A stretch of 64,000 nucleotides of DNA from Chiloscyllium plagiosum (Eukaryota), in NCBI RefSeq assembly GCF_004010195.1, contig NC_057718.1, positions 39,860,579 through 39,924,578 on the forward strand, given 5' to 3'. Made by a program: the position numbers and the translations under genes. The number at the start of each line of letters is the position of its first letter. The stretch's first letter is position 1. This document shows positions 5,230-52,542 of the stretch, in pieces. The notes under the pieces are model-generated. The model was given only the letters and a program-made list of their open reading frames with translations, was not told where the DNA came from and made no database searches.

Positions 5230-6410
5230 GTTTGTGTGTTGATTGAAGTTATGAATTTGGCAACTCACGCAGCCAAGTTCAGCTTTAACGTTGCCATTAC
5301 ACACAAATAGATAGCGTTTCTCTAAGCCCAGCTCTCAAAAACATTGTAGGGTCATGGTTACTCTGATCAGATTTTTGATGCTGCACATGGGGCAAATTCA
5401 CAAAAACACTTTTGGAATGAGCAAAGATTATTCCAAATCACTGTGATGGGCAGGGGATCTCAAAACATTTGGCAGGTGAAGCTAGCCGTTTCATGCTGCT
5501 ACTTGTAACTGCAATACATACTGGTATTCTCCCCTAACGAGATGCTGCTCTGTAGCCAAAGGGATGTTCTAGCCATCACACGAATGGGTACTATGGTACT
5601 AGGAATTTCAGTGCTGATGCATTGCCAGATATGTAATCTGTACATCCCAATGACTGGCAGATCATGTCAAATGGTGCATTCCTTTGTAAGTTTGAAATAG
5701 GCAAAGTATTGACTGTACTCAACCAAGGAATCTGTGTTTGCAAAACTCAAAACATAATGCTCAACATTAGATATGATTCTGTGATTGGGCAGCACTTACT
5801 GAATAATCTCAATTGTGTCAAGAATTACACTAACAACTAACTTAAAGTAATCACTCAGGCTCACAATGCAGCTTACTTACACTTGCTAGAGACTGCATTG
5901 ATTCACAAACAGGGCCAATTCCGCTGAAGGCAAAACAAATTTGTCTAGACATTGCTCATTTCCAACTAAATAAAAGCTTAGCACATAATGTTCCCTGGTG
6001 CATTCTCCTAGCACATTTCAACCAAACTCAACTTGCCACTTTTGAATGTAAACAAGAGGTAACTGGTTCCTCAGACATTTCCACAGCAATGCCTTAATCA
6101 GAATCCACTTGCCAATCAATCACCACCTTATTTCTCATACTATATACAATGTTGTTCCCTTTGAAAAGTTTCAACAGCAAATTTATTTTTTATCAGCAAT
6201 ACCTGCAGATGCTCAATATCTGAAACAAAAACAGAAAGTACTGGGAACACTCAGCTGGTCTGGCACCATCTGTGGATAGAAAAACAGAGTTAGTGTTTAA
6301 GGTCAATGATCCTTCATCAAAATATTCTGATACAGGGTCACTCACCTGAAACATGACCTCTATTTCAGGCCTGGCAACAGACCTGCAGAGCATCTCCATC
6401 ACTTTCTGTC
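5230..6410 (+). mobile_element. Decayed Penelope-like retroelement (RT remnant, GIY-YIG endonuclease remnant, inverted pLTR)
   Basis: Translated remnants IEVMNLATHAAKFSFN...TQID...LSPAL (RT) at about 5240-5345, and EFQC..ARY / DSVIGQHLLNN..CVKNYT...LHLLETA (GIY-YIG-type C-terminus) at about 5600-5945. Followed by a degenerate fold-back LTR-like segment at 6195-6410. Confidence 0.65.
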
Positions 6411-10405: not shown

Positions 10406-11313
10406 TGCATATATAGTTCTAAATTTGCTGATGACAAAGATATATAGGAAAGCAAACTGAGAGGAAAACAAAAGCAATCTTCAAAAGGGATATTGACAGC
10501 TTAAGTCAGTAGTCAAAAATTTGGAGATGGAGCATGACGTGGATAAAGTGTAAATTTATCTACCCTGGTAGGAAGAATAGAAAGGCAGCATACTATTCAA
10601 AGAGAAAGAGATTGCAGAGCTTGGAAGTACAGAAGGATCTGGGTGCCCTAGTTCACGATTCACAAAAAAAGGTGATATATGGCTACAGAGGGAGATTAGG
10701 AAGAAAATGAATATTGTTGATAGTGAGTGGAATGATATATAAAAGTAGGAATGTTATGTTGCAGTTGTACAATGAGTTGGTGAAAACTCTTTACCATTAC
10801 TTAAACAAGGATAGAAATACAATAGAAGCTAGTCAGAGAGGTTTAAATGAGCTAAAGTGACATGAGGAAAGTTATCTTCTAAGAAAAGATTGGACAGCTA
10901 GGTTTATATCCATTACAGTTTCGAAGACCGAGAAGTGACTTTATAAAAACATACAAGTTCCAGAGGATACATGATAGGGTGGATGCTCCAAAGATGTTAT
11001 CCTTGTGGGGCAGACTAGAATTGGGGCACCCAGTTTAAAAATGAGGTCTAATCTCCATTTCAAATGAGAAGAAATCTTCTCTCTCATTTAAAATGGAGAT
11101 TAGACCTCATTTTTCAAGAGTTCTAAAGAGTCTCAAACTTCTGAGAGAAAGAAGATTTCTTCTCTCTCAGAGGTTTGAGATTCTTTAGAACTCTCTTCCC
11201 AAGAAAGATATGGGGGGCAAGGTATTGAATATTTTCAGGCAGAGGTCGAGATTCTTGACTAACATGGGAGTCAAAGGTTATCTTGGGGTTAGGCAGGAAC
11301 ATGTGGTTGGAGC

Positions 11314-11402
11314 TGAAAATGTGTTGCTGGAAAAGCGCAGGTCAGGCAGCATCCAGGGAACAGGAGAATCGACGTTTCGGGCATAAGCCCTTCTTCAGGA
11401 AG
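11314..11402 (-). mobile_element. Family A hammerhead-bearing short element, intact core
   Basis: 14 bp duplication catgtggttggagc at 11300-11313 and 11403-11416. Minus strand 11371-11398 = CTGAAGA-A-GGGC-TTAT-GCCC-GAAA-CG-TC. Confidence 0.8.
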
Positions 11403-12732: not shown

Positions 12733-12899
12733 GGCGATCTGAGAAGATCACACTGCAGAGCTTCGCATCGCAGCAGGAGCAGGACGGTTCTTTAACCCAC
12801 CCAACCCAGGTCATCAGGATTTCTTGGGGCGTTGGAAAGATTGTGCAGCCCCAAGAAACATTTAAAAATTGACTTTCCTGTATTTTCAGCTGTTCAGAA

Positions 12900-13693
12900 A
12901 TGCCTATAAAGGGAGGAGGAGCATCGGAGGCCAGGCCTGCAGCTCAGCCTGCAGCAGCCTCAGAGCAGATTACTCTCCAGAACCTGGTGAACCAGCTTTT
13001 GAAATCTCGCAAGATGTTGGGGAAACAGATTGAAGAGAAGCTGGCTCCAGTCTCTCTCATGCTGCAGAAGCATGAGCAGCAGCTGGGAGACCTGGAGAAG
13101 AAGACGGATGAGGTGGAGCACAGGGTCACAGTGGTGGAAGCTGATGCCAGTTCATTCAAGGAAGAGATCCAAGCCCTGAAGATGCAGTTCGTAATTTGCG
13201 TGACCAAGTGGATGATCTTGAAAACAGTGGCAGGAGAAAAAACATTCGGATCATCGGTCTGCCTGAGGGTAAGGAAGGTGAGCAGCCTGCGGAATTTGTT
13301 GAAGATTGGCTTCCGAAATTCCTTAACTTGGAGACTGACATGAGAGGATTGAAGATAGAGAGGCCTCACCGGATCACAGCACGGAGGTCGGGTCTCGGTC
13401 AACGCCCTCATCATTACCGGGATAAGGAGAGAGTCATGGAGGCTTCCAGACTCCAGGGGAAGGATCCAAAGGCCCTAATTTACTAGGGATCTAAGATCAT
13501 GTTTTTTCAGGACTTTTCAGCGGCGGTGATCCAGAAACGAAAATCGTATGATGGTGTCAAGAGAAAATTGAAGGAGCTTGGGATTCAGTACTCCCTGAGA
13601 TATCCGACAGTGCTTCGGATCATCTTAGGTGGATCCATGCATCTCTTTGACACATCGGAGAAGGTAAGAGACTTTGTAGACAAACTAACCTAA
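12900..13693 (+). pseudogene. L1 ORF1 (coiled coil + RRM + CTD), frameshifted
   Basis: Heptad-rich N-terminus, DLENSGRRKNIRIIGLPEG, IERPHR, FFQDFS...KRK, YSLRYP. Split across ORFs 12900-13343, 13196-13486 and 13499-13693. Confidence 0.9.
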
Positions 13694-14297
13694 GTTAAAC
13701 AATTGTAGTATGTATAAATATTGTTGCTTGGGTATGCGTTTATCATTCTGTAGAAGAAATGGAGGAAATCTGGTTGGAGCTTTGTTTTTCCCTTTTTTTT
13801 CCCTCTATTGATAATAATTTGGTGCAAACTATGTCTGGTGGTGGTTAAGATGTACATTTTTAATTTCTAAATTAGGACATACCAAAGGATGGGTGGGGTA
13901 TTTATTCCCTTTTTTTTAATAAAATAATTTTTTTTTATTCATATTGATATTCTATGGGGTGTTTATTCTTTTTAGCTTGTGTTTGCGATGCGGCTCTAGC
14001 TGGGAGAAGTCAAGGTGGTTGAGATGGTTAGATGCTTATTTATGGGCAGTTCGGGACGGGTAGTTGCCCCTTCCGGGCAGGGGGTGAGTTCCCCTACTCA
14101 GCGCTATTGGTGCTTTATATGTTGGTTTGTTTTCTGGTTTTTGTTGTTCTTTATTTTTAATAATTTTGTATGTTTGTTAAATTTAGTGGTTTTAGTTTAT
14201 GTAGTTTTTATATTTGGTGGACCATGCCACACTAAGGCTCAGCAATTTGTGGTTCGGGTTCCTCCTCTCTGGAATTTAAATGTAATTGCAGAAGATT

Positions 14298-17200
14298 ATG
14301 GCTAATGATTTGATTAAATGGTATATCTGGAATATCAAGGGAAGTCACTCACCAATTAAGAGGAAGAAGGTACTCTTGAGTCTTAGAAAGGAGAAGGTGG
14401 ATATTGCTTTGTTACAGGAGACACATTTGGATGACAAGGAGCATCTGAAATTACAGCAGAATGGCTTTGACCAAGTTTATTTTTCATCATTTAATACCAG
14501 AAGTAGAGGAGTGGCTATATTGGTAAAGAAAAATCTCTCATTTAAATTGTTGGAATGTGTTAAAGACACATATGGGAGGCTTGTAATTCTTAAAGCCTTG
14601 ATAAATGGGGAAGAATATGGCATTTTAAATGTTTATTGTCCCCCAGCTCATCCTCTTAAATTCTTGGTAGATGCTTTTTCTAAACTGATAAGTCTCAAGT
14701 CTCGGCACATCATTATAGGGGGAGATTTTAACTGCCTTATGGACCCCACAGTAGACAGGTTGCCTAAAGATCTCTCAATACCCTCTGCACAAACTAAACA
14801 GTTATTGGGTCTGTGTGGGGAATTAGGATTGGTGGACGTCTGGAGGTGTCTCCACCCTACAGGTAGGGATTTCACGTTTTTCTCCAATTCGCATAGATGT
14901 CACACAAGGATTGATTTTTTTCTGACCCCTGCGGTAACCCTGGATCTGGTGGCATCCTGTACGATTGGTAATATTGCTCCAATGTACCTCATGGTTAAAA
15001 TTGCTCTGATCATGCTCCAGTGTACCTCATGGTTAAAATTAAGGATGTTACAGTGGATTCAAGGTACTGGCGAATGGACCCCTTTATTCTCATGGACAGC
15101 AAGTTTGTGGAGTATTTCTCTAAGGAATTTTGGGCATTCCTAGACATCAACATAGGCTCAGTTGATAGCTCATCTGTTCTCTGGGAAACTGCCAAAGCTT
15201 ATGCCAGAGGGTTAGTTATTTCATATTCCACAAGTAGGAAGCGGCAGAAGGGTGGGCAGCAACGTCTCCTTGAAGCACGGTTGAAGGCAGCCGAGAAGGC
15301 CTATTTTGACAGACCCTCATTGGTCAAACTACAGAGGATTACGGCACTGCGGTCTGCACTAAATTCCGTGCTTATGCAGATGGCAAAGAAGGAGCTGGCT
15401 TTTGCAAAGCAAAGGTTATAAGAGCATGGTGACAAGCCAAGCAAATACTTAGCATACCTTGCCAGAAAGAGAAGTGCCCCACAAACCATTACAGCGATTA
15501 GGGAAAGGTCTGGGAACCTAACATGTGATTTAAAAAGATTAATGTGGCATTCCAGAGATTCTACTCTAAGTTATATCAGTCTGAGAATTGTGAGGAGGGG
15601 CAGGCCAAAATGGAATCCTTTTTTAGGGATCTGAAGCTCCCGGGTGTGACTCCCAAACAACAGTCCTTTCTCAATGCCCCATTATCAGAGCAAGAAGTGC
15701 AGGAAGCTGTGAGGCAGCTTCAGAGTGGAATGGCGCCCGGTCCTGATGGACTTCCCAGTGAATTCTATAAGGAATTTATAAGTATACTGTCAGGCCGGAT
15801 GCTGAATATGTTTAATGATTCATAAGTCATCTTTGTCTCCCACCATCTCTGAGAGAGGCCAATGTTTCATTTATCCTTAAAAAAGGGAAGGATCCGGAAG
15901 ACTGTGCTTCATACAGGCCCATCTCGCTCTTAAATGTGGACTTTAAGATCCTCTCTAAGGCACTTGCATTAAGGCTGGAGACTGTGTTACCCTCTATTAT
16001 TAAAGAGGATCAGACGGGCTTCATAAAGGATCGCAGATCCTCCAATAACGTTAGGAGGCTGCTTAACGTAATTCAAGCATGCCAACAGCAGTCAATACAG
16101 GGATTGGTGATTTCTTTAGATGCAGAGAAGGCATTTGACCAAGTTGAGTGGCCGTACCTTTTCTATACTCTAGACTGGTTTGGTCTGAGCGAAGTTTTCA
16201 CAAGATGGGTAAAGGTTCTCTACAGTGTACCTCTCGCTGCAGTCATTATCAAGTAATTTTAATATTTCTAGGGGCAGCCGGCAAGGCTGTCCCCTTTCAC
16301 CATTACTTTTTATGTTGGTGATTGAACCGTTGGCAGAGGCCATTCGTGGGGATCTCAATATATCAGCTAAGATCTCGCTGTATGCAGATGATGTTCTAAT
16401 TTTCTTGACAAATCCAGCAGTCTCAGTGCCTTGCCTGATACAATGCATTCACGCATTTGGTGCTTTTTCAGGGTATAAGATCAATTTTGCTAAATCAGAG
16501 GCTATGCCTATGGGTGGTCTTATGAAAGAGTTGGCTCTTGAGAGTGACTACAGATTCCCATTTAGGTGGTTACAGGGGGGTTTTGTTATTTGGGCACATT
16601 CATTACTCCAGTTCTGGATTGGCTGTTCAAAGCCAATTTTACTCAATTACTTGAAAAATTAAACAAGATCTCCAAAGATGGGAGGCACTTCCAGTCTCAT
16701 GGTTGGGTCGGTTAGCGCTTAAGATGAATATTCTCCCTCGTTTGCTATACCCTATACAGATGCTCCCCTGATTTCCAATAAACAAACACTCAGGAGACTG
16801 AACAGTTGGTTCAGCTCCTTTATCCGGCAACGTAAACGGTTCCTCATTAAATTAGCCAAACTGCAGTTGCCTCACAGATTGAGGGGAGTAGACCTTCCAG
16901 ACATTAAAAATTACCAATTAAGCTCGCTTTTGGCCTACGTAAGTGATTGGGTTTGTGGGGACCCTCTTTCAATATGGCTAGATATCGAAGTCTCCCAGGC
17001 AAGGTGCCCCCTTACCAGTTTGCTGTTTTTGGACAAGGTGAGGACAGTTAGGGAATATTGCCATAACCCAATAGTCATCAATACTGTTAAAGCATGGAGG
17101 GCAATTCGGCAGAGGGAAGGTAATATTGGCAAAACATCTTTGTTTACACCTTTAGTGGGTATGCCGAGTTTTCAACCACGTATGATAGATTCAGGATTTA

Positions 17201-18080
17201 AACTTTGGGCAGCTAGGGGTGTATCTTGCATGGGTGATTTATTTGAGGAAGATATAATGATGTCCTTCGATCAGTTAGTACGGAAGTACAAGTTACCTAA
17301 TAGAGACCTCTTTCGTTTTTTTCAAGTTAGGAATTTTATTCAAAAAAAGACCACACTTTTGACTGATCCCTACAAATCTTGCATAGAAAGAGGGTACTAA
17401 GGGCTAAGAGTACCCTCTCTGTCAGTACTCTATATCATCAATTGGGGGGTGCCACCTCAAATGAGTCTGATCGACTCTGCAAGATGTGGGAGAGAGATCT
17501 GGGTGTTGAAGTTTCATCAGACACATGGGAGGATATTTGGGAGAATGCAAGGAAGATATCAATTTGCAATAGGACCCATGCTTTACAGTTGAAGATTCTC
17601 CACAGGGTCCACTTAGCCCTAGACCGTTTGTCAAAATTTAAACCAGGGGTATCTTCAGCATGTCCCAAGTGCAAGGTCTGTACGGGTACTCTTACCCATT
17701 GTCTTTGGTCTTGTGACACGCTTCAAACATATTGGAGTGCTGTGGTGGGTGCAATGGAGAGGATTTTAGGTGTAAGGGTGAAGAAGGACCCTATTTCCCT
17801 CCTTTTGGGCCTACCCATTGTATTTCCTGCAGACTCGCATAAGGAAAAACTTTTCAATATTCTTACATTCTGTGCAAGGAAGAATATCTTGCTAGGTTGG
17901 ATATCAGAAAACCCCCCAGGCCTATCGGGTTGGCGGAAGATTGTTATGGAGCATTTTCCCCCGAATTTTCTCACAAATATGGTACACCACAAAACTGAGA
18001 ATTTTTACAAGACATGGCAACCCTTTTTGAAATACCTGGACACAGATTTATCTGCCACACTAACAAGGGCTTTTATATAG
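14298..18080 (+). pseudogene. L1 ORF2 (APE endonuclease, reverse transcriptase, C-terminal CCHC), multiply disabled
   Basis: WNIKG, LQETH, GGDFN, RIDFF, SDH (EN); PGPDG, YRPISLLN.D.KI, LDAEKAFD, RQGCPLSP, YADD (RT); CPKC-x8-H-x4-C. Several frameshifts and stops. Confidence 0.93.
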
Positions 18081-18420: not shown

Positions 18421-18680
18421 AAAGGCATTTAGCACATTAGCCTTCATTGCTCAGACCTTTGAGTATAGGAGTTGGGATCGAGAGTGTGGTGCTGGAAAAG
18501 CACAGCAGGTCAAGCAGCAGAGGAGCAGGCAATTCGACGTTTCGAGCAAAAGCCTTTCGAGCAAAATCTGGAATCAGCACCACAACTTTTGACTTTGATC
18601 TCCAGCATCTGCAGTCCTCACTTTCGCCTATAGGAGTTGGAATGTCATGTTGAGGTTACGCAGGACATTGGTGAGGCACA
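18421..18680 (+). mobile_element. CR1 fragment, right part, interrupted by a family A insert
   Basis: aaggcatttagcacattagccttcatt...gtcatgttgagg...ggacattggtgagg continues the CR1 ORF2 broken at 12732. Confidence 0.8.
18476..18628. mobile_element. Family A short element, inverted pair, internally deleted
   Basis: 12 bp duplication tataggagttgg at 18464-18475 and 18629-18640; carries the family terminus ctccagcatctgcagtcctcacttt. Confidence 0.78.
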
Positions 18681-18995
18681 CAGTTGTTTCAGGACTTTTA
18701 AAATCCAAGCTTACCATCACCAAATCAATCAAAATCACCAAAACTACTGTTTTCATGTTTGGGAATACTGCACCTAGGGACTATAACCAGGAGCCTTGGT
18801 TCCTGAATAGACAAAGTTAAAGTCAAGTTCAAGTTGTCTGACAATTCAACAAAGGTTCAAAGTGAACTGTGTCTGCTCACTATGACAAGTGAATTGAATT
18901 CAATTACATCCAAAAGGAAAATAATATGCAATGAGAAAACGTGCTCAGTCAGCAGGACTAGACACATAACTAAATAAGCTGTACTTGAACATATC

Positions 18996-19131
18996 ATGAT
19001 TTGGAGGTGCCGGTTTGGGCTGGGGTGTACAAAATTAAAAATCGCACAACATCAGGTTATAGTCCAACAGGTTTATTTGGAAGCACTAGCTTTCGGAGCG
19101 CTGCTCCTTCATCACCACCTGATTTTTAACT
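18996..19131 (-). mobile_element. Family B hammerhead-bearing short element (core damaged)
   Basis: atgatttggaggtgccgg...aagcactagctttcggagcgctgctccttcatca; flanking near-duplication ttgaacatatc / ttgaatatatc. Minus strand TGATGA-A-GGAGC-AGC-GCTCC-GAAA-GC-TA lacks C3. Confidence 0.78.
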
Positions 19132-19144
19132 TTGAATATATCAA

Positions 19145-20045
19145 ATCAAGTATAGTTAGTAAGTTTGCAGATGACACCAAATTTGGCAATCCTTCCTATA
19201 GGAGAGACCAAAATTGCATACAATGTTCCAAAAGTGGCCTAACCAATGTCCTAAAAATGTGGAACATGACCTCTCAATGCTTATACTCAATACTCTGACC
19301 AACAGAGGAAAGCATACCAAATGCCTTCTTCACTATCCTATCCACCTGTGACTCCACTTTCAAGGAACTATGAACCTGCACTCCAAGGTCTCTTGTTCAG
19401 CAACACAGCCCAGGACCTTTACCACTAAGTGTATAAGTCATGCCCTGATTTGCCTTTCCAAAATGCAACACTGCACCTTTATCTAAATTAAACTTCATCT
19501 GCCACTCTTTGGCCCATTGGCCCATCTGATCAAGATCCCATTGTACTCTGAGGTAACCTTCTTCACTGTGATCAGAAGAGATTTCCAAGAATGTTGCCAG
19601 GGTTGGAGGGTTTGAGCTATAGGGAGAAGATGAATTGGTTGGGGTTGTTTTCCCTGGAGTGTCAGAGGCCGAGGGGTGAGCGTATAGAGGTATATAAAAC
19701 TATGAGGGGCATGGATAGGATGAATAGACAAGGTCTTTTCCCTGGGGTGAGGGAGTCCAGAATTAGAGGGCATAGGTTTAGGGTGAGGGGGATAAATTTA
19801 AAAGGGACCTCAGGGGTAACTTTTTCACGCAGAGGGTGGTGCACGTATGGAATGAACTACCATAGGAAGTAATGGAGGTGGTACAATTACAACTTTTAAA
19901 AGCATCTGGATGAGTATATGAATAGGAAGAGTTTAGAGGGATATGGGCCAAGTGCTGGCAGGTGAGACTACATTAATTTAGGATGTCTAGTTGGCATGAT
20001 CAAGTTGGACCAAAGGTTTCTGTGCTGTACATCTCTAGGACTCTA
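19145..20045. mobile_element. CR1 3' portion with internal inversion (+ 19145-19186, - 19187-19568, + 19569-20045)
   Basis: VSKFADDTK on +, then SEEGYLRVQWDLDQMGQWA on -, then QKRF.RMLPGLEGLSYRE and 3' UTR on +. Confidence 0.85.
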
Positions 20046-20729
20046 AATGTGGATTAGTTTCAATACATGACACCTTCATATCTTTGCACACAGAAATGCA
20101 CTCATTCCTTTATTAATCCCAGTAAAAGCAGACTACTCTGACAAAATAGAACTGCGCAACTAATTAAATATCCAAATATTAACATTGGAAGGCAAAGGTC
20201 CCTAATTTTTGAAATTATTTTTCCAGATGGTCCGAGAATTGGGAGTCAACAATTGAAATTCCTCTCAAACAAGCAGTCTCTATTAATCTCCAGGCATTAT
20301 GGTGTAGTCTCAGATAGGAATGGAAAACGTAGCTGGAATTAGAGATAGGAAACCTTCCCTGAACACTCATATTGCTCAATCATTTGTGCAACCTGTGGCT
20401 CTGAGAGTCAGAACAAATCAACACACACAAAGCAGCATCCACTGGGGCATGTAGGGTTCATTATGTAAGTAATCACTTCCTATATTTCACTGCATAGTTA
20501 ATGATTGCTGTAAAAACAACATATATCATGCAGAATGCTGTAAGACATTGACACCATAATAACAGAATAAAAATAGTTTTTTGACAATCAAAATTTAACT
20601 AAAAACAGTTCAATATTTTACATTCTAAGCAACTTAAATGGCAAATGATCTAGCGCAGGGTTTTAAAAAGATTATTGCCAGTGGGAATTGTCTTTTCCTT
20701 TTCTCATCATGTACGGTCCCTGATCAATA

Positions 20730-21075
20730 AGGGACAGCGCGGTGGCTCAGTGGTTAGCACTGCTGCCTCAGAGCACAAGGGACCAAGGTTCTTTTTCAGC
20801 CTCAGGCAACTATTTGTGTGGAACTTGTACATCCACCCCATTTCTGTGTGGGTTTCCTCCTGGTGCTCTGGTTTCCTTCCACAATCCAAAGATGTGCAGG
20901 TTAGGTGGATTGGCCAGGCTAAATTGCCAACAGTGTCTGGGGATGTGTAGGTTGGGTAAATCGGCCATGGTGGGGTAGTGACAGGATTACAGGGATAGGA
21001 TGAGATGCTCTTTTGAAAGTCAGTGTGGACTTGTTGGGCCAAATGGCCTGTTTGCACACTGTAGGGATTCTATGG
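20730..21075 (+). mobile_element. HE1-type SINE
   Basis: GGTGGCTCAGTGGTTAGC head, central domain, ...ctgtagggattctat tail. Confidence 0.88.
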
Positions 21076-21175
21076 AATAAGCTGTACCTGATCTGCATTA
21101 TTGCACTCCTAACCTTAGTCATTTCCATCCATTCCTCACCTACCAATTGTAAGTGCACCTATGATCAGAAACTTA

Positions 21176-21390
21176 CATTAGATTCCCTACAGTATGGAAA
21201 CAGGCCCTTTGGCCCAACAAGTCCACACTGTTCCTCCAAACAGTAACCCACCCAGACCCATTGTCCGACCCTATATTTACCCCTGATGAATGCACCTATC
21301 ACTATGGGAAATTTAGCGTAGCCAGTTCACCTAAACTGCACATCTTTGGATTGTGGGGGGAAACCAGAACTGACAAGGGGAGAATTTAAT
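21176..21390 (-). mobile_element. HE1-type SINE, partial
   Basis: Reverse complement of the 3' half of 24870-25182. Lies tail-to-tail with the preceding SINE. Confidence 0.82.
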
Positions 21391-21399
21391 AGTATTGGA

Positions 21400-23400
21400 A
21401 TGCTACGATAGTGCCTTTACTATGAAAACTGAAGCAAAGTGTTTCTTCAACTCCTCTGCCATTTTCTGGTTTCCTGTTAGTATTAGTTCCTCAGACTCAT
21501 TCACTTTGACTTCTCTTTTCCTTTTTATTTATTTAAAGAAGCTCTTGTTATCCATCTTGATATTACTTGCAGGTTTAATTTCTAAGTTTGCATAAGAACT
21601 AGAAACTGAAGTAGGCAATTCAGTCACTTGAGCCTGCTCTGTCATTGAATATTATCATGACTGATCTTATCTGTCTCAACTCCACTTTTCTGTCTGGTCT
21701 TCCTAAACCTTCAAATCATCACTAACTAAAAATGTTTCTGTCTATCTCGTCCTTAAATTTACTCGAGGTCCCGATATTGACTGCACTCTGGGGTATCTGG
21801 GGAATTCACTACACCGCCCTTTGGGAGAAGTAATGCCTCTGCTCTGTTTTACGTCTGCTACCCATTAAACTAAAACTATGACCACTCATTGTAATAGCCT
21901 CCCAAGTGGAAACATCAGCTTTACTTAAATTTGTCAACCCCCTTTAATATCTTAGATACTTCAATTAGATCTTGCACTCTTCTAAACTCTAGGGAGTATA
22001 GGTCAAAACTGCTCAATCTCTCTTTATAAGACAAACCCCTTATCTCTGGAATCAATCTACTGAACTTCTTCTGAGCAACCTCCAATGCAACTACATCACT
22101 TCTCAAGTAAAGGGTCCAAAACTGTGTGTATTGTTTTGGTCATCTTTTGTGGTTTTTAAAACTTTCCCAGTCCTCTAGTTTACTACCAGTCTTTGCCATA
22201 TTTTATGCTTTTTTTCTTTCAATTTGATGCTATCTTTAACTTCACAGTTAACCACAGTTGGGTTATCCCCTTCCTAAAATCCTCCTTCCTCACTGGAATA
22301 TTTCTTTGCTGTGAGCCATGAACTATTTTATTAAATGTTTACCATTGTTACTCAAGCACCTTCTCTGCAAAACTCCTTTCCCAGTCCGCTCCAGCCAGCT
22401 CTGCCCTTATTCCTTTGTAATTACCCCGTTTTACGTTTAGTACAGCTGGTTCTGACTCAAGTTCTTCCCTCTCAAACTGAATGCGAAATTCACTTAAGTT
22501 AGTCACTGTTTCTAAGATCTTTTACTCTGACATCATTTATTAAAACTGTTTCATTACGCATCACCACATCCAAAATAGCCTATTGCCTGGTTAGATCCAA
22601 AACATATTTTGTGGCTTGGTGGCTCAGAGTGCCAGGGACCTGGGTTTGATTCTACCCTCAGGCAATGTCTGCAGATTGCACATTCTCCCATGGTCTGCAT
22701 CACTCCAAAGGTGTGCAGGTTAGGTGTAACTGGCCATGCTAAATTGTCTAGGGATATGCAGGCTTGGTGGATTAGCCATGGGAAATGCAGGGTTACAGGG
22801 ATAAGTTGGGGAGGGTGGATCTGGGTGGGATGCTCTTCGGAGAGTCAGTGTGGACCCAATGGGCCCAACTGCCTGCTTCAATTCTGTCGGGATTCTATGT
22901 ACTTCTGGGAAACAGTCTGAGTTCTCATGGCTTCTTCTGCAAATCTGACTATCCCAACCTCCATGAAGATTAAAGTCATCCATGATTAATGTTCTGCCTT
23001 TGTTACAAGCCCTCATTATCTCCTCTTTTATTCTCTGTCGCACTGCATAGGGAGCTTTTAAACTATTCCTACCAACGTCTTGTTTCCCTTTTAATTGCTT
23101 CCTTCCACCCTTACTTATTCCAGCCCATACCAACAATGCTAGCCCACCACCCTTTCCTTCAAAAAGTCACATACTACTGAATATTTAGTACCCAGATTGA
23201 TCTCCATAATGGCTGGAAGATCATACCCGTTGACTTGAAAAATAATGCTAGTAATTCATTTATTTTAAAATTACTTTCATTCAAGAAAGAGACACTTATC
23301 TTTTTACCATTTTCTCCCCCTTTTGACCATATTTACTGCTGTCTTTCTATGTTTGTATACTTTGTCCCTTTTTGTCCTGCTCTGGGTATCTATATCCCGA
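21400..23400 (-). mobile_element. Fragmented CR1 LINE(s) (3' end, ORF2 and EN pieces) with an internal SINE
   Basis: ALEVAQKKFSRLIPEIRGLSYKERL on -; EN motif IMDDFNLH at about 22960-22990. Confidence 0.7.
22610..22898 (+). mobile_element. HE1-type SINE, degenerate
   Basis: cagagtgccagggacctgggtttgattc...gtgcaggttagg..tggccatgctaaattg...gggattctat. Confidence 0.78.
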
Positions 23401-23953
23401 TACGAGAATTAAAAAAAAATGAAAGAAGACAAAGACTACAACTGCAACTAATTTTAAATTTTGATTTCAGAAAATAAATCTAAACCAAGCATAGGTTTGG
23501 GGTTTATAAACAAGGCTCCGGCTGTTATTACTTTTAGAACAATGACTACAGTAAGTGGTGTCAGTGGGAATTTCTAGCCAGTATGTTGCAATCTTGTTAA
23601 GGACTGTTAAAGTTTATAGACAAATCCAAACACCCAATGATTAATGAAAAGAACTATGCCACAAGATTTAAAGTCTTTAAACAAAAACAAAGTTTACACT
23701 AGATAAAAATTAAAACAAAGCAAGCATTATAAATGGAATGCTGTAGTTTGTAACAACATATACTATGACCTCAGATCTACATCTAAATACCGCCTCTCCG
23801 GAAATGTTTCCTCTCACATTACAAGAATCTTGAAAGCTCATTCACTTTTGCTGGGTCAAACTCAAAGTTATGACACAGCTGTGCAGATGTCAGTTTGGTT
23901 TCTCTTCAGTGTTTCAATTAATCTACAAGGTGTGAAATATCACGATAGTCCTT

Positions 23954-24152
23954 ATGATTTGGAGATGCCGGTGTTGGACTGTGGTGGACAAAGTTAAAAA
24001 TCACACAACACCAGGTTATAGTCCAACAGGTTTAATTGGAAGCACTACTTCGGAGCACTGCTCCTTCATCAGGAACCTGATGCTAGTGCTTCTCAAAGCT
24101 AGTGCTTCCAATTAAACCTTTTGGACTATAACCTGGTTTTGTGCGATTTTTA
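23954..24152. mobile_element. Family B short element, head-to-head inverted pair
   Basis: Long inverted repeat centred near 24075; flanking duplication acgatagtcctt (23942-23953) / acgatagttctt (24153-24164); degenerate CTGATGA...GAA cores. Confidence 0.82.
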
Positions 24153-24869
24153 ACGATAGTTCTTCTTCTTCAAAGACTTTACGATTGTGGATTTTTCAAT
24201 TCAAGCATGGGCAGAAGGGATTTAAACATTAGGAACACCCATGATTCCTAAGAACCCTCAAACACTTCCCCAGCTTCAATCACTTCCCAGTACAGTTGCT
24301 GGCCTGGATTTCCCTGTGCATTATATGCTGACTGCTTGTGGCTGTGCACTTTTGTGAGCAAATACATACATATAATAATAGGAGCCCTCCAACCTCCACA
24401 TACCATCTCCATGACAGCATGGCATTCCCAGGATGTTCCAAATAGAAAAATAAACAAAATATCTTTTCTTTAATTCGGTAATCAACGGGAACAATTTTTA
24501 CCTCTCATGGATACAAATTGCCCTCTCTTCAAACTTGCTGATTCCTATTAAGGAACTCCCTTGATTTACAAGCTGAGGACCTATACACATTATTTAAATC
24601 TTTTCCTGAAGCAAGAGCAGATCTTCTAGTCCCAATAGAAGCAAAGAAAATGATCTTGTTCATTGCAATCAAGCCTCTACCTCTAATCTTGTAAAATGAG
24701 CACAGATTAGCTTGTAACTATTAATTTACTCCAAGTTTGTTTGGTGTGCATTCACAATCAGTTGTTTAAAAACTAAAAAGTTACATTCTAAAAAAATATG
24801 AAATATGAATTGGATATTCACAACAAGCAATATAACAGAGGTTAATAAAATGTTACCGGTTACAAGACA

Positions 24870-25182
24870 CGGGGCGGCACAGTGGTTAGCACTGCTGCCT
24901 CACAGCACCAGGGACCCAGATTCAATTCCTGCCTTGGGCAACTGTCTGTGTGGAGTTTGCACATTCTCCCCATGTCTGCGTGGGTTTCCTCCGGGTGCTT
25001 TGATTTCATCCCACAGTCCAAAGATGTGCAGGTTGGGTGAATTGGCCATGCTAAATTGCCCATAGTGTTAAGTGAAAGGGTAAATGTAGGGAAATGGGTC
25101 TGGGCGGGTTGCTCTTCGGAGGGTCAGTGTGGACTTGTTGGGCCGAAGGGCCTGTTTCCACACTGTAAGTAATCTAATCTAA
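24870..25182 (+). mobile_element. HE1-type SINE, full length
   Basis: Box A/B head, central domain, gtaagtaatctaatctaa tail. Confidence 0.92.
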
Positions 25183-25221
25183 AACTGAACTGGTGTGTTC
25201 CGAAGGAGCATCACACCTGGA

Positions 25222-25612
25222 TATCATGTTGTGGTTGTACAGGACATTGATGAGGCCAATTTGGAGCACTGTTTTGGTTGCTCTACTATAATAAGGATAT
25301 TATTAAATTGGTAAGTGTGCAGAAAAGATTTACAAGGATGTTATCAGGACTAGATGGTTTGAGTTATAAAGGAGACGCTGGATATACTGGGACTTTTTTC
25401 AATGGAGCATAGGATGTTGAGGGGTGACCTTATACAGATTTATAAAATCATGAGGGGCATTAGTAAGGTGGTCTTTTCCCTAGGGTAGGGGTATTCAAAA
25501 CTAGAGAGCATAGTTGTAAGGTGAGAGGAGAAAGATTTAAAAGGGATGCGAGGGGCAATTTTTTCACATACAGGGTGGTTCTTGTACGAACTGAACTGTC
25601 AGAGGAAGTAAT
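25222..25612 (+). mobile_element. CR1 ORF2 3' fragment
   Basis: LYRTLMRP.LEH...VQKRFTRML..L...VRGERFKRD.RGNFFT.RVV. Confidence 0.8.
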
Positions 25613-26014
25613 AGATAAACTGCTAGGCTACCTTCATATCCAAAGTTCAAGGTCTTGCTGCTCTGGTACCCCCTTTACAATTGGCTTTCCTCATGTTTGC
25701 AATAAAGAGACATCGCTTCACATTACTCAGCATTAAACTTCATCTACCATGTGTCTGTTCCACTAAGCTATCTCTTCTTGAAGTCTATAACTATCCTTCT
25801 TACAGCTCACTATTTGTATATTCAGTAGCATCCTCAGATTTTGAAATTATGCATCACATTTAAGAGGAGGTGATAAATGGAGACCGAGAAACGTAGCGAG
25901 TTTAGCACCAGTTCCGGATTAACCCCACTCTATGTCGCCCTCCAGTCTGAAAATCAAGCAAACATTCACCACTACTCTGTCTCCTGTCATCCAGCTAACA
26001 TTATATACTTGCTA

Positions 26015-26190
26015 AATAAAAACTAAAGAACTGTGGATGCTGTAAATCAGAAACAAAAACAGATGTTGCTGGGAAAGCTCAGCAGGTCTGGCAGCATCTG
26101 TGAAGAGAAATCAGTCAGTCTTTCAGGTCTGGTGACCATTCCTCAGATGTCAACAAGGGTCAACAGACTCAAAACACTGACTCGCATTTC
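26015..26190. mobile_element. Older Penelope-LTR-like fold-back remnant
   Basis: aagaactgtggatgctgtaaatcagaaacaaaaacagatgttgctgggaaagctcagcaggtctggcagcatctg is related to family A. Confidence 0.55.
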
Positions 26191-26677
26191 TCTTGACAGA
26201 TTATATCCATGCTGCCACTTTCCTTTTATTCAATGACTTTCAACTCTGCAAACATAGTTGCTGCATGACATTTAATCAAACGCCTCTTCAAAGTAGATGC
26301 ATACCAAATCAACCACACTTCCTTCATCAAAAAAACTCAGTTAAATCAACTCGTTTTAACAAATCTGTACTTTCCTTAATTAAACCACACTTTTCTCAGT
26401 GATTAAACAAGTCATTTAATTCCTGATCAAATGCAGTACTGCACAGCAAGAATGAAGAAGTATTGTAAAAGAATGAAAAAACTGAAAAAAAAACTACTGC
26501 ATTAAAAATAATCTACATATTTTTGGAAGCTGATAAATAACAGTAGTAGCAAAACTTTCAAAGGTTAAAAACAAAAAAAAGTGTGAAATTTAACCAAACT
26601 TTTCTGAAAGCTGTAAATACAACCTCAACTTCTGTAAGCTTAAGAACAATTGTTCTTCGATAATTAACAATTGTCAA

Positions 26678-26905
26678 GGGGAGACTGTTAGCTCAGTTGG
26701 CTGGATGACTGGCTTGCGATGCAGAATGCCAATTCAATTCCTGTCCTGGCTGGACTCACCCTGAAAGTCAGATGTTCTCAAATTCACCCATTCAAGAGGC
26801 AGAGTGACCCTCGTGTTAAACTCACTGTCAGTCGTCTCTCTCTCTCTCTATCACGACAAAGAGCAACCCTATGGCCTTCAGAGATTATGGTGACTTTATC
26901 TTTTC
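26678..26905 (+). mobile_element. tRNA-derived SINE-like element (third family)
   Basis: Box A-like TTAGCTCAGTTGGC, degenerate box B (ttcaattcc), (CT)n internal tract. Confidence 0.55.
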
Positions 26906-27083
26906 TTTACCTAGTAGCTATACAGTGAAAGATTTAAGTACATATATTTTAGCTACAAGCCATGCCTTATACACTCATGATTAAAAGATAATAGAATATG
27001 GATTGTTACATTGTTAGCGTATCAACTAAACTGAATGGCAGTAACCAACCTGCTATTACAGGCATGCTTAATTTTTATTTACT

Positions 27084-27265
27084 TTGATTTGGAGATGCCG
27101 GTGTTGGACTGGGGTGTACAAAGTTAAAAATCACACAACACCAGGTTATAGTCCAACAGGTTTAATTGGAAGCACACTAGCTTTTGGAGCGCTGCTCCTT
27201 CATCAGGTGATTGTCCAATTAAACCTGTTGGACTATAACCTGGAGTTGTGTGATTTTTAACTTTG
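27084..27265. mobile_element. Family B short element, inverted pair
   Basis: Inverted arms acaaagttaaaaatcacacaac...ttaattgga / tccaattaa...ttaactttgt; duplication tatttact at 27076-27083 and 27266-27273. Minus-strand core CTGATGA-A-GGAGCAGCGCTCC-AAAA-GCTA (G12->A). Confidence 0.85.
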
Positions 27266-28347
27266 TATTTACTATCAGAGCCTTTGTTGTAGTTGTACTT
27301 TGCTACACAAAGAGGAATGCAGCTTCCCTCCTCCATTAAATCTTAGTGGTGTCCCTTCTAACTAACCACACGGTATATTTACAAAACCCAGATATCTTAA
27401 AACACCACATAGGGTTTTGTTAAGAAACTGGCATTCAGCACGTTTTAAGATATTGGGGAATGAAAAACAATTCATTTTAGGCATCACAATCTCTCCCAGG
27501 CTTGATTTACATGTTTAGACAAAAAAAAGCCTTCTTTTACTTGATCCAAAACACATGCCTCAATCCCACAATACTGGAGTTGGGCATTTTCCAATATCCA
27601 ATCATGCAGCTCGCAAGTATCTACCATGGCTCAGATTGTAGAGCACTCTCAGAAGACAGGATGTTCAAATCTGACTCAAGAAGAAAATTCAAACAGTTTG
27701 CAGAGCAAGACCATCAAGTTAGGGCCAAATTCTGAAGCAGTTTATATTGTGAGAGTCCACACCCACCTGTTGAAACTGTCCAAAATAAACTGTTCATTAA
27801 ATCCAAGTACGACTCAGTGATTGTAAATTGAGTAAGAGAAGAAGAGGTCTAACTCACGATATTTTCCCTGTATGAGCAAGCTATTACAGAGATGGTGTTG
27901 AATGAGATGGAAACAGATTTAGAGAAAATCATACTGGCCATCATTCACATACATCTACCAGCAATATAAAACTGGCATTGGCAGTCATTAATCACCAAAG
28001 CAAAACCATAATTAAAAAAAACTTCATACAGTTCTTCAAATATAACACACCATCATCTTAAAGTGAATCTACAGTGAGACCGACTTCAAAGTTGGCAACT
28101 AATAACCATTGTTTTCTGACCAGATCAGATTGTTAGGAACAACACCAGAAAAAAGCCAGCAAATCTCCACAGCAGCTCGGATGCTTGCATTTAGCTTCCC
28201 AACTCAAGATTTCATTGAGTTGACAGATGCAAATCTGAGATGAACTTGATTTCTCATTTTGCATGTATATTTTGGAATTTCAAATAAAAGGCAAATGTGA
28301 ATTGATCCTAAAACTATATTTCTTTGAACTATGCCCCACTCTCTGCT

Positions 28348-28531
28348 CCAGGTTATAGTCCAACAGTTTTATTTGAAAGCACTAGCTTCCGAGATGTTGC
28401 CTCTTCATCAGGTGGTGAAGAGGTAGCGCTCCGAAAGCTAGTGCTTCCAAATAAGCCAGTTGGACTGTAAACTGGTGTTGTGTGATTTTTAACTTTGGAC
28501 ATCCCAGCCCACCACCAGCATCTCCACATCA
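28348..28531. mobile_element. Family B short element, inverted pair (opposite orientation)
   Basis: Fixed family end at the right (ccagcatctccacatca); near-duplication ccactctctgct (28336-28347) / ccactttttgct (28532-28543). Confidence 0.8.
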
Positions 28532-28811
28532 CCACTTTTTGCTGGAGGAATTAAACAGCAGAAACCTCAGTTAATTGTATGTCAGAGCCAGTGACATTAG
28601 ATGAACACACTCACCAGCACACACTTGTCAATATTAGATCTAGTAGCTTCCCCACTCCACATAGTATTTTGAATAGGGACGTCAGGCATTCTCTTTGGGA
28701 TTGACCTCCAGGACTGATTAGGATCATTATCCATTATGCAAAATGAGAAACACTAATGTGGCAGCAATATGGCCATCTTTGCTCTTTTTGTATTAAATGA
28801 ATAATACAAGA

Positions 28812-31800: not shown

Positions 31801-33200
31801 CCCCAAAAGAGATTCCAATGATCCAAAAATGCGAATCCTTCTACCCTACACCAGCGCCTCAGTCACGCATTCATCTGCACTATCCTCCTATTCCAAACCT
31901 CATAGCACTGGAAGTAATCCAGATATTACTACCCTCAAGAACCTCCTTTTTAAATTTCTGCCTAACTTTCTATATTTTCCCTTCAGAATCTCATCCTTGT
32001 CCCTTCCTATGTAATTGGTTTGAATGTGTACAATGACTTACTGTGGCCCCTCTCTCCTTTGAGAGCATTCTGCAAGCTTTCTGAGATATCCTTGATCCTG
32101 GCACCATGGCGGCGACATACCATTCTGATTTTTCACTGCTGGCTCAAGCTGTCTGTGCCTCGGACTAGAGACCCCCTTCTAATACAATTGATCGCTTGGA
32201 TTCTGACGTACCCTTCGTTACATTAGAGCCAGTCTTGATACAAGAAATTTGACTGTTTGTGCTACATTTGCCTGAGAGTCCATTGCCCCCTACATTTTCT
32301 AAAACAGCATTCTTGTTTCAGATGGGGATAGCCACAGAAGATCCAGCACTACCTGGCTACCCCTCCTACATTTTCTGGAGTTAACCCTTCTTGTACCTGC
32401 GGCTTTTCTCCCTTCCTATAACTGCCACCCAACAAACCCCCTAGCTCTTGCCTCTAACTGCCACTCCAACAGATTCATGTGATCTGATAGATTTCACAAC
32501 CAAAGACACTTCCTGCAGACATAATCATCAGTAACATAGAAACTCTCCCTAATTCTCCCATATCCAACAGGAAGAGCATATCACTCTATTAAAGGCCATC
32601 TTTGTTCCTTCACAAGCAACAGACCCGAAAAAAAAGCACCATCGTTTTGCTCTAAAAAAAGTGCTCCAGGATAAATTTTAAAAATATAAACTGTAAGTAT
32701 TAAGAAATCAACAGAGAGATCTCAACAAAACATATAATCAAGAAAGAACCCACTCTACTCACTACAGTAGACTTACAGCAAGGTTACACATTACAAACTA
32801 TGCACTCATCTGTTCCCGTGCTGTGAGCTCACCCACACCAGTTCCTCCAAGGTCAGGTGTGAATTTCACTGTTTGTTAATTATTCGTAGACGCACTCTGG
32901 TGCAGTAACCCAGCAAAGGCAGTAACTGTGCAGACTCACTACTGTGTCAGTTAGCTGGGTGGATTTTTTATTGTCTCTCGCTCACCGACCATATCTTGCT
33001 GCCTTTTGTCTGTCTTCCTCCTTTTAAAAGTTCCAATGCTTTGATCTTTTTCCCCCAAAGTTCCAAAACAATGCAACAACTTATAGAACTGTAATTGCTG
33101 TTCCTGGAATTTGAGGAAATCACCTTCAACACCTAAAAGGTGCAGCTCTTACAGCCACAACAGTTTTTCCCCATCCTCCATCTTGGATTACCCAGAATTT
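28812..33200 (-). mobile_element. Near full-length, disabled CR1 LINE (5' UTR, ORF1 with esterase-like domain, ORF2 EN+RT, 3' UTR)
   Basis: Minus-strand ORF pieces: LYKKDGLDLN (ORF1 SGNH-like), VGDFNFP (EN), KSPGPD, SCLTNLIEFFEEVT, SGVPQG.VLGP, SKFADDTKIGG (RT), LVRPLLEYC. 5' boundary approximate. Confidence 0.9.
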
Positions 33201-34016
33201 CCACTTCCATTCCCGTTTTTAGTTTCCTCTTAAAATAAATCAGAATGCTTGGGAGGGATTGAGTTAGTGTGATTGCCCTTCCCTCATTCAAGCTAATTTA
33301 AAGTTGGATCATCGCGACAGTAAGCATAATAAAGAATTCATGCAGCAGTTTTAGTCAAATCCTCAGGACAATGACAAGTTGGAGAAGCCGCAATACATTT
33401 CTATTCAAACTAACACCGAAAAAGGTAGCATATTCGTTTTTTGCAATTGCAATCATTAGGCTGAATTTTCTTTACAAAAAACACCAAAGCTACTAATCAC
33501 CAAATTAATCTGTTTAGAGGGAACATGACTTGTCCAATTTCACTGCCATCCTAAATAAATTTCAATATCCAATCTAAGTTTAAGCCTTGTAAATTTGCTG
33601 AACAACAACCAGAGATACCACTGAACATTTTATAGCTTTAAACTTTGGTTTGGTAGGGAGGGAAATGTTTGCAAGGGTGCATTACTATACATAACACATA
33701 ATATTATAAAATACTGTTTCTTCACTGTCACCGGGTCAAAATCCTGGAACTCCCTCTCTAACTGAATTGGGGGTACCCTAAACCATATGGACTGCAGGAA
33801 GAGGCAACTCACCACCACCTCAGCAAAGTGAGCAACACACACATCCTGTGAACAATTTGTTTTACAAAGTAAATTTCTACCGAAGACAAGCACTGGTAAC
33901 ATAAGGGCAGTAAGTTCACTGCAATTTTCTCCCTGCTTCAAACTGTGATCACAATTATTTCTTCAGATCTGAACTGAGATTCATGAGGCACTAAAATTTG
34001 GTAGCCATTTTAATAT

Positions 34017-34248
34017 GGGAGAAAGTGACGACTGCAGATGCTGGAGGTCAGAGCTGAAAATGTGTTGCTGGAAAAGCGCAGCAGGTCAGGCAGCATCCAA
34101 GGAGCAAGAGAATCGACGTTTCGGGCATGAGCCCGAAGAAGCCCGAAAAAATGCTGCATTCCTGAAGAAGGGCTCATGCCCGAAACGTCGATTCTCCTGC
34201 TCCTTGGATGCTGCCTGACCTGCTGCGCTTTTCCAGCAACACATTTTC
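34017..34248. mobile_element. Family A short element, young head-to-head inverted pair with one intact hammerhead core
   Basis: Near-perfect inverted arms of about 80 bp; 14 bp duplication agccattttaatat at 34003-34016 and 34249-34262. Plus strand 34162-34189 = CTGAAGA-A-GGGC-TCAT-GCCC-GAAA-CG-TC. Confidence 0.88.
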
Positions 34249-34407
34249 AGCCATTTTAATATCCCAATTCTAATAAAAATAATTCCATTCAGAGAGATAT
34301 TTTATTGAATTAATGACAATTTTTTTAAAACTTGCTTGTCTTTTTCAATCTGAAGCAGAAGACCAGTAGACACTAAGAGAAATCTTCTAAATGATACTGA
34401 TAGTCAT

Positions 34408-40910: not shown

Positions 40911-41120
40911 GATCAGTGTGGTGCTGAAAAAGCACAGCAGGTCTGGCAGCAACTGAGGACCAGGAAAATCAACATTTTGGGCGAAAGCATTCCTGATGAA
41001 GGGCTTTTGCCCAAAACATCGATTTTCCTGCTCCTCGGATGCTGCCTGACCTACTGAGCTTTTCCAGCACCACTCTGATCTAACTCTGGTTTCCAGCATC
41101 TGCAGTCCTCACTTTTATCT
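40911..41120. mobile_element. Family A short element, inverted pair, CpG-decayed core
   Basis: 15 bp duplication acttctacttgttaa at 40896-40910 and 41121-41135. Plus strand CTGATGA-A-GGGC-TTTT-GCCC-AAAA-CA-TC at 40993-41020. Confidence 0.85.
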
Positions 41121-45526: not shown

Positions 45527-45580
45527 CTTTTGTAGACTGGTAGGATTCAGCTGTGTTTTGTCAATTATTTTAACAGCAAC
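45527..45580 (-). CDS. MARK1: MARK1 coding exon 3 (VAVKIIDKTQLNPTSLQK)
   Basis: 54 bp, tttcag|GTT GCT GTT AAA ATA ATT GAC AAA ... CAA AAG|gtaaag. Contains the catalytic lysine motif VAVK and is in frame with exon 2. Confidence 0.95.
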
Positions 45581-46432: not shown

Positions 46433-46636
46433 TTCTCTCCCAGTCAAAACATGTCGTGCTAATTTTACTTTTGCAAAGTTTCCTTTGCCTATAGTCTTCA
46501 GCAGCCTATAATTTCCAATGTGGGGTTGCTCTTCAGTCGTAGATGCCACTGAATTCCTGCATCGTGGTAAGTTTTGTCTGCTACTCGACTTGGAAGGCTG
46601 GATTTGTGAGTCACCATATCCATCAAGAGACGTGTG
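46433..46636 (-). CDS. MARK1: MARK1 coding exon 2 ([68 protein letters not shown]), start of the kinase domain
   Basis: 204 bp, phase 0, acceptor ttctgcag| and donor |gtgagt. Contains the Gly-rich loop IGKGNFAKV. The DGY...IQP.KSSSRQN.PRCRNS linker and ARHVL are MARK1-type rather than MARK3-type. Confidence 0.96.
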
Positions 46637-52350: not shown

Positions 52351-52542
52351 TCTCTCTCTATATCACATTTTTAAGCTCTGATCTCCAGCATCTGCAGTCC
52401 TCACTTTCTCCTATCCCATATCCTGACAACTGCTAGGAAGCCTGAATACAACTTCCATCAGGGTTTCTTTCCTTTGTAGTTCCTTAACTCTATCTGCACA
52501 AATTCTATACTTTCCAACTCTATATCACTTTTTGCTATTGAT

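Follow-up and report, generated by a model that had tools for sequence, protein, structure and literature searches.

An inverted, hammerhead-bearing repeat family in a shark genome, very probably the end of a Penelope-like element

Family B insertions at the locus

The window analysed here, a 64-kb stretch of the Chiloscyllium plagiosum genome (contig NC_057718.1, positions 39,860,579 to 39,924,578), is repeat-rich sequence of about 40% GC, in which four insertions of one family, termed family B, carry the motif of a minimal type I hammerhead ribozyme. From the sequence alone, the original prediction had placed four homologous insertions at 18996, 23954, 27084 and 28348 and assigned them to a second Penelope lineage, besides a first hammerhead-bearing family (family A). 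Their homology is borne out, as the long arms are 84-92% alike over 121-130 nt. By BLAST within the window, copy 1 matches copy 3 at 91.7% over 121 nt, copy 2 at 87.7% over 130 nt and copy 4 at 84.4% over 128 nt, and BLAST of each insertion found no fifth copy in the 64 kb.

Each copy is surrounded by a 12-bp target-site duplication (TSD), whose two sides match at 11, 11, 11 and 10 of 12 positions in copies 1 to 4, respectively; none of 2000 random flank pairs used as a control reached 11 matches, and 10 of them reached 10. The TSDs bound units of 135-200 bp without an open reading frame (ORF), and every unit contains an inverted second arm that had previously been overlooked, full in copies 2, 3 and 4 and reduced to a 17-nt remnant in copy 1. 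Copy 1 (18985..19143 with its TSD at 18985-18996 and 19132-19143, minus strand) consists of a long arm with tail (18997-19114), cut at the inversion junction, at position C3 of the ribozyme, and of the remnant at 19115-19131. In copy 2 (23942..24164, TSD at 23942-23953 and 24153-24164, minus strand), the long arm with tail (23954-24073) is followed by a short palindromic centre and then by a scrambled inverted arm without tail, at about 24076-24152. Copy 3 (27072..27273, TSD at 27072-27083 and 27262-27273, minus strand) joins a long arm at 27085-27214 to a tail-less inverted arm at 27214-27261. Copy 4 (28336..28543, TSD at 28336-28347 and 28532-28543) is oriented opposite to the others, with its long arm and tail on the plus strand (28409-28531); its shorter arm (28348-28414) bears the motif on the minus strand, with two changes in helix II that each affect both sides of a pair.

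All four long arms stop at family positions 27206-27214 (in the coordinates of copy 3), which places their ends at the 5' ribozyme edge rather than at the cut. According to predicted folding, copies 2-4 form long hairpins of -84 to -105 kcal/mol; miRNA-like matches in Rfam were rejected, being merely these fold-back arms. The units are dispersed as well as inverted, 1.1-4.8 kb apart, and no head-to-tail tandem array of them occurs in the window.

The hammerhead motif and the end sites across the family

In copy 3, the motif occupies 27175..27209 on the minus strand, with a helix I of 3 bp, a core segment at 27206-27200, an extra A at 27199, a helix II of 5 bp, the G12 site at 27185 (lost in this copy), an AGCU stub and a predicted cut at 27178/27177. 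Alignment of the copies reproduces the minus-strand consensus of the original prediction as the majority reading, and alignment of the arms likewise agrees with it that each copy bears a core lesion. C3 is replaced in copy 1; two bases are lost at 15.2/16.2 and A15.1 is changed in copy 2; G12 is changed to A in copy 3; and in copy 4 A13 is changed to G in the minus-strand arm, and C3 and A6 are changed in the plus-strand arm. The proposed CAC/GUG helix I stands as the majority reading, but is intact in only two of the five ribozyme-bearing arms. The definition of the minimal hammerhead ribozyme (min-HHR) given by Cervera & De la Pena 2014 (PMC4209133) includes an extra nucleotide, a G10.1-C11.1 pair and palindromic positions 15.2/16.2. 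An unpaired extra A between positions 9 and 10.1 and the G10.1-C11.1 pair are present in all five arms, and a palindromic AGCU at 15.2/16.2, without loop 3, in four of them, being deleted in copy 2.

Within single copies, the motif does not exceed chance expectation, and its support comes from the family-wide reading. A strict descriptor returned no perfect hit and two one-mismatch hits in the window, compared with 0-2 in 10 Markov controls (at least one in 4 of the 10), and no hammerhead, those of family A included, was among the 12 Rfam covariance-model matches in the window at E<=5. Cofolding of two copies was uninformative, since helix II paired in trans and the active dimer was not formed.

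The family-wide reading was obtained from four of the 24 runs listed, aligned at 80% likeness to copy 3 and its flanks: three contig runs from organisms A, B and C (X1, X12 and X16, respectively) and one raw RNA run from organism A. As many as 72,573 contigs (A), 90,935 contigs (B) and 14,750 contigs (C) aligned to the 183-nt insertion, whereas the flanks were covered by single contigs. Family B therefore amounts to tens of thousands of copies at least and is common to the three organisms. One contig of organism B spans the left flank of copy 3 into the element (26900-27131, with 9 other letters and 5 gaps); because organism B shares this left junction, copy 3 predates the split between organisms A and B.

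A consensus that keeps CUGANGA and GAAA had been put forward as decisive, and the family-wide core proved to be intact, with the G12 letter at 27185 kept in 67-80% in all four runs: 75% (A), 67% (B) and 79% (C) of contig depth, and 1,531 of 1,925 RNA reads (80%). Over the whole stretch, X1 shows 19 changes at 5% or more, of which 18 were located. Among these 18, the motif of 35 nt contains just two CpG sites (27185/86 and 27190/91), changed in 13-25%, and two loop II positions (27192 and 27193), changed in 27% and 35%; no other core change at or above 5% was seen among the 18, the remaining change being a G>A. The loss of G12 is due to CpG decay. The change of C11.1 to U, found in 11-21% of the family, is also a CpG change, and leaves a G-U pair. 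The helix II variant common to both arms of copy 4 stays below 5% in X1, which fits the copying of one arm from the other.

The contigs also reveal where family B elements end. At 27085 they leave the element into unrelated AT-rich flanks in at least 1,435 (A), at least 2,718 (B) and at least 373 (C) records. A second, inner site accounts for at least 715, 1,232 and 112 exits, respectively, which among the rows listed fall at 27120/27123 in organisms A (355 + 360) and B (701 + 531) and at 27118/27123 in organism C (49 + 63), at a spacing of 35-38 nt from the outer site. The two family-wide sites thus delimit an optional tail of 35-38 nt (27085..27122, minus strand). In every copy the long arm terminates at the outer site; the second arms of copies 1-3 terminate at the inner one, and that of copy 4 about 20 nt before it. 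Five letters next to 27085 agree in all four runs and would complete an ATG, so that a candidate start codon beginning at 27085 is possible in copies with a few more bases at that end. End sites joined on opposite strands into tail-to-tail units (27083-27086 with 27115-27121) were observed in 12 and 6 contigs of organism B and in 3 of organism A. Opposite-strand joints and loose ends at 27175/27176 resemble ends made at the ribozyme cut, but were set aside since they coincide with a 2-nt insertion of copy 3.

The architecture is the one described for insertions of Penelope-like elements (PLEs), in which an inverted, 5'-truncated copy is accompanied by a 30-40-bp tail on one end (PMC8557442, PMC3846280), and in the anole Poseidon element such a tail is the stretch between two internal start sites of reverse transcription (PMC11167929). 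Family B is very probably the hammerhead-bearing end, or pseudo-long terminal repeat (pLTR), of a very high-copy endonuclease-positive (EN+) PLE, and its four insertions here are stubs that were dead on arrival. The observations behind this reading are the TSDs, the head-to-head arms, the two fixed end sites, the intact family-wide hammerhead and a polyadenylation signal in use (described below); the intact core also supports the original proposal of a second Penelope-like lineage with a minimal type I hammerhead. Reverse transcription would begin internally, at either of the two sites in the RNA, as it does in vitro for the anole Poseidon element, and would stop at the ribozyme's 5' edge after copying no more than 90-130 nt; fold-back of the product, or its meeting with a second cDNA, would then yield an inverted unit with the tail on one side. 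The ribozyme would serve the RNA cycle of the parent element, its cutting depending on a second copy (through AGCU pairing in trans) or on an element protein.

Several points weigh against this reading. The family-wide fractions are weighted by contig depth and are not copy counts, some differences in X1 and X12 being left uncounted, and no record states from which kinds of library X1, X12 and X16 come. No ORF for a reverse transcriptase or a GIY-YIG endonuclease was found in the TSD-bounded stubs. Beyond the shark data, a 17-mer scan of a metagenome collection gave 33 loci, all of them chance matches (the best of 17-23 nt), and 21-mer scans of viral and prokaryote collections gave none in either. 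Covariation within the family is limited to two both-side changes, both in the minus-strand arm of copy 4, a level reached by 139 of 500 shuffles. Finally, RNA read depth stays level across the predicted cut, at about 1,550-1,600 reads on both sides, and no pile of read ends is listed there.

Family B could instead be a non-autonomous palindromic element, similar to a miniature inverted-repeat transposable element or to a retrozyme, that is amplified as a whole hairpin. This would suit the fact that all four insertions are short inverted units with TSDs, the near identity of the junctions of copies 1 and 4 and the recurrence of some opposite-strand joints in several contigs. It is nevertheless very unlikely, given that the four centres differ, that the arms are unequal and carry the tail on one side only, and that opposite-strand joints occur in hundreds of different forms (15 plus 224 more reported). 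Moreover, many contigs and RNA reads pass 27214 into element sequence that is not inverted, and the four units of the window include no tandem array of the kind formed by non-LTR retrozymes.

A polyadenylation signal in use beside the ribozyme

A polyadenylation hexamer lies at 27161..27166 on the minus strand, as AUUAAA in copy 3 and as the AAUAAA variant in 27-41% of the family. It starts 11 nt after the predicted cut in copy 3, and 9 nt after it in copies without the 2-nt insertion. The RNA data come from organism A, namely from about 2% of a raw poly(A) single-cell run, from which 3,168 reads were aligned. Of these, 1,032 carry poly(T) and represent minus-strand RNA polyadenylated within 27146..27149, the family poly(A) addition position, either 12 nt past the hexamer (27149, 470 reads) or 15 nt past it (27146, 562 reads), counts in which mates may appear twice and a few loci may dominate. 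The genomic sequence past these sites is not A-rich. The minus strand is therefore the sense strand of the element.

The polyadenylated reads derive from loci other than copy 3, whose flanks have no RNA depth. Upstream of the ribozyme, about as many reads as are polyadenylated (196, 343 and 523) run, uncut at position 17, into three sequence variants, the largest of which resembles the continuation seen in contigs, so that the RNAs stem from several longer copies; within the window, the upstream continuation of the element has no match at up to 3 mismatches. The polyadenylated RNAs stop short of both end sites and therefore cannot be templates of the insertions. Among the RNA reads, several A>G and T>C differences at 27122-27149 reach 10-20%, compared with 1-4% of contig depth. 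A-to-I editing in fold-back copies is not claimed, because a few dominant loci explain RNA-only differences equally well; A>G (11 places) and T>C (6) do not stand out against G>A (15) and C>T (11), which are equally common.

The text portions covered of PMC4209133 do not discuss a poly(A) signal, the in vivo use of which is seen here. The portions covered of Schostak et al. 2008 (PMC2377424), where a 34-bp repeat in PLE insertions is described, do not mention a poly(A) signal beside the hammerhead either. The use of such a signal beside a PLE hammerhead was not found in a full-text literature search, which is weak evidence, as subscription papers lay outside it.

The RNA data also bear on whether the motif cuts at all. 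It might be a relic with the shape of a hammerhead, or a fold that needs protein and seldom cuts in vivo, with the poly(A) signal acting on the stub RNA. The reads that span the predicted cut are in line with this, as are the insertion ends, which lie upstream of the motif and not at the cut; for the anole element, it has been reported that cleavage needed protein and was dispensable for insertion, and that no RNA-seq reads ended at the cut (PMC11167929). The missing cut product says little, however, because a 3' product of about 30 nt plus tail is too short for a poly(A) single-cell library to retain. In addition, the core is kept across three organisms and across unrelated families, and min-HHR dimers cut slowly in vitro (PMC4209133; Lunse et al. 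2017, as described in the review PMC6765202); in PMC4209133, a monomer gave no cleavage and multimers weak cleavage. A relic or protein-dependent fold is, on balance, somewhat unlikely, and can be compatible with the origin of family B from the end of a PLE.

A more speculative proposal, put forward here as unlikely, is that the pLTR contains a single switch made up of the ribozyme and of the poly(A) signal, 9-11 nt past the cut, and that in introns the host selects for masking of the signal in the fold-back stem rather than for loss of the ribozyme. RNA polyadenylated at the hexamer would end upstream of both start sites of reverse transcription and could act as mRNA only, whereas read-through RNA, or RNA starting in the pLTR, would provide the template of insertion; cutting would separate the upstream RNA from its poly(A) signal. 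Predicted folding places the hexamer within the fold-back stem in three of the four copies.

Genomic setting and relation to known elements

The first part of a MARK-family kinase is encoded on the minus strand, in two exons. The stretch at 46433..46546, part of an exon, fixes the gene family and the strand (MARK3, E 5e-18; MARK1, E 1e-17), and it is followed by an exon of 54 nt (45527..45580). A loose motif search yielded no convincing candidate for a later MARK exon in the window, and for this reason the four family B copies are probably contained in one long intron, read from the minus strand, after the 54-nt exon.

This setting had led to the suggestion that inactive copies are preferentially retained in the intron, which the present data do not uphold. 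The corresponding explanation, namely that working ribozymes on the sense strand cut the MARK pre-mRNA and were purged, leaving only dead copies, draws on the lack of a perfect core in any of the four minus-strand arms. Under average family divergence, the probability of finding none of four intact is 0.014-0.129 over nine parameter sets, and Xenopus tandem retrozymes are described as depleted in introns (bioRxiv 2026.07.22.740005). When the age of each arm is considered, the divergence outside the ribozyme (7/84, 5/84, 3/84 and 4/34) translates into chances of an intact core of 0.31, 0.41, 0.52 and 0.21, and hence into a probability of about 0.15 that none is intact, a value that assumes independence and is based on 34-84 columns per arm. 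Two of the lesions are junctions: that of copy 1 was made at insertion, and the plus-strand arm of copy 4 is lesioned as well. G12 is not depleted in polyadenylated RNA reads, being present in 81% on the main strand as opposed to 75% in contigs of the same organism, and at 4514 and 11398 the presumed intron contains sense-strand family A arms with all core letters, albeit with a weak helix I. Furthermore, single min-HHRs showed no cleavage in vitro (PMC4209133), and splicing still takes place in introns that a slow hammerhead cuts (reviewed in PMC2995048). Purging of working ribozymes is thus very improbable indeed. The lesions have plain causes, which are the junction (copy 1 and the plus-strand arm of copy 4), CpG decay (copy 3), a small deletion (copy 2) and a point change in a 12%-diverged arm (the minus-strand arm of copy 4). 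Under the PLE reading, they would come from the insertion junction in the first two arms and from ordinary decay in the rest, and not from host selection; four copies cannot demonstrate selection, and the observations do not call for it.

Family A is represented in the window at 4375-4517, 11310-11401, 18485-18632, 34010-34251, 40915-41120, 50744-50899 and 52364-52414. All core letters are present at 4514, 11398 and 50829 (minus strand) and at 34162 (plus strand), helix I is only 0-4 bp long, and the copies at 34 kb and 40 kb have exact 14-bp TSDs. The assertion that families A and B are unrelated in sequence holds pairwise outside the ribozyme, where 62, 82, 206 and 307 of 500 shuffles reach the B-versus-A score; a colinear look-alike, with similar spacing of ribozyme, inner site and tail, is not significant against shuffles, and homology was rejected. 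A third hammerhead-bearing family, at 26030-26200 and 6208-6304, is related to family A outside the ribozyme (0 of 500 shuffles) and has other helices; its copy at 26030-26200 is inverted, lies inside the family B interval and has a 13-bp TSD candidate (11/13). The differences between the helices of A and B had been taken as covariation-type support for the fold. Several divergent families per genome have been published, and a third one occurs in the same interval, and the contrast is therefore one more case of published between-family variation; within family B, as stated above, covariation is not significant.

Every ribozyme feature cited in the original prediction was already published in 2014 (PMC4209133). 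Family B has the min-HHR core, the unpaired nucleotide between 9 and 10.1, the G10.1-C11.1 pair, the palindromic 15.2/16.2 positions, no loop 3 and a 3-bp helix I. It is also similar in its very many copies and in the coexistence of several divergent families in one genome: the published motifs number about 4,000 in the coelacanth and 9,000 in Xenopus, are mostly single, occur on opposite strands too, and form several covarying consensus families per genome (PMC4209133). In the published alignment, CAC/GUG appears as helix I in a limpet row, and lamprey and sea urchin have it in extended form; a turtle and a schistosome row contain the AGCU palindrome, and AAUAAA stands just 3' of helix I in the turtle and one Xenopus row (PMC4209133). 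Judging from these shared motifs, the turtle min-HHR family may be related to family B. The supplement text of PMC4209133 contains no match for shark, Callorhinchus or the family B motif, although content present only in figures could escape such a search, and a literature search, judged by titles and the start of abstracts, found no paper on a shark hammerhead retrotransposon.

As regards the insertions, the head-to-head arms, palindromic centres, one-arm tail and TSD are those of the complex insertions of EN+ PLEs (Arkhipova et al. 2013, PMC3846280; Craig et al. 2021, PMC8557442), from the examples of which family B differs in its TSDs of 12 bp, compared with 8-10 bp in rotifers, and in its units of 135-200 bp without ORF. 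It resembles Poseidon_Ac (PAc) of Anolis (Frangieh et al. 2024, PMC11167929) in the two end sites that bound the tail, the AT-rich targets and a hammerhead about 55-95 nt upstream; in PAc, however, the ORF starts inside the ribozyme, whereas the only candidate ATG of family B is at the far end of the tail. Non-LTR retrozymes (bioRxiv 10.64898/2026.07.22.740005) are also non-coding, bear a type I hammerhead, derive from PLE pLTRs and have been reported in one chondrichthyan, but they form head-to-tail tandem arrays with at least two ribozymes, in contrast to the four dispersed, inverted and TSD-bounded units of family B.

Other features of the window include a near full-length but broken L1/Tx1-like long interspersed element (LINE) on the plus strand at 12873-18080, with APE endonuclease and RVT_1 matches, and a broken pol of a long terminal repeat (LTR) retroelement or endogenous retrovirus at 61855-63717, with RNase H and integrase zinc-binding and core domains in three frames. 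An assembly gap of 547 N (51485-52031) falls within a LINE-like stretch. Two further repeats, assigned to no family, are present in two copies each (32506-32599 and 37293-37386; 54781-54901 and 57872-57993), and two adjacent, mutually alike and near-perfect hairpins of about 75 nt each, at 11034-11194, match no family identified in the window.

Family B adds one shark family to a ribozyme class described in 2014, and the arrangement of poly(A) signal and ribozyme is the only lead worth following. As a high-copy family with fixed landmarks (the ribozyme, the poly(A) site and the two end sites), it offers material for counting the starts and stops of Penelope cDNA, and it is suited to asking whether the poly(A) signal or the ribozyme filters intronic copies. 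If the proposed switch were true, the family, with its tens of thousands of copies, would spread functional poly(A) signals among the genes of sharks.

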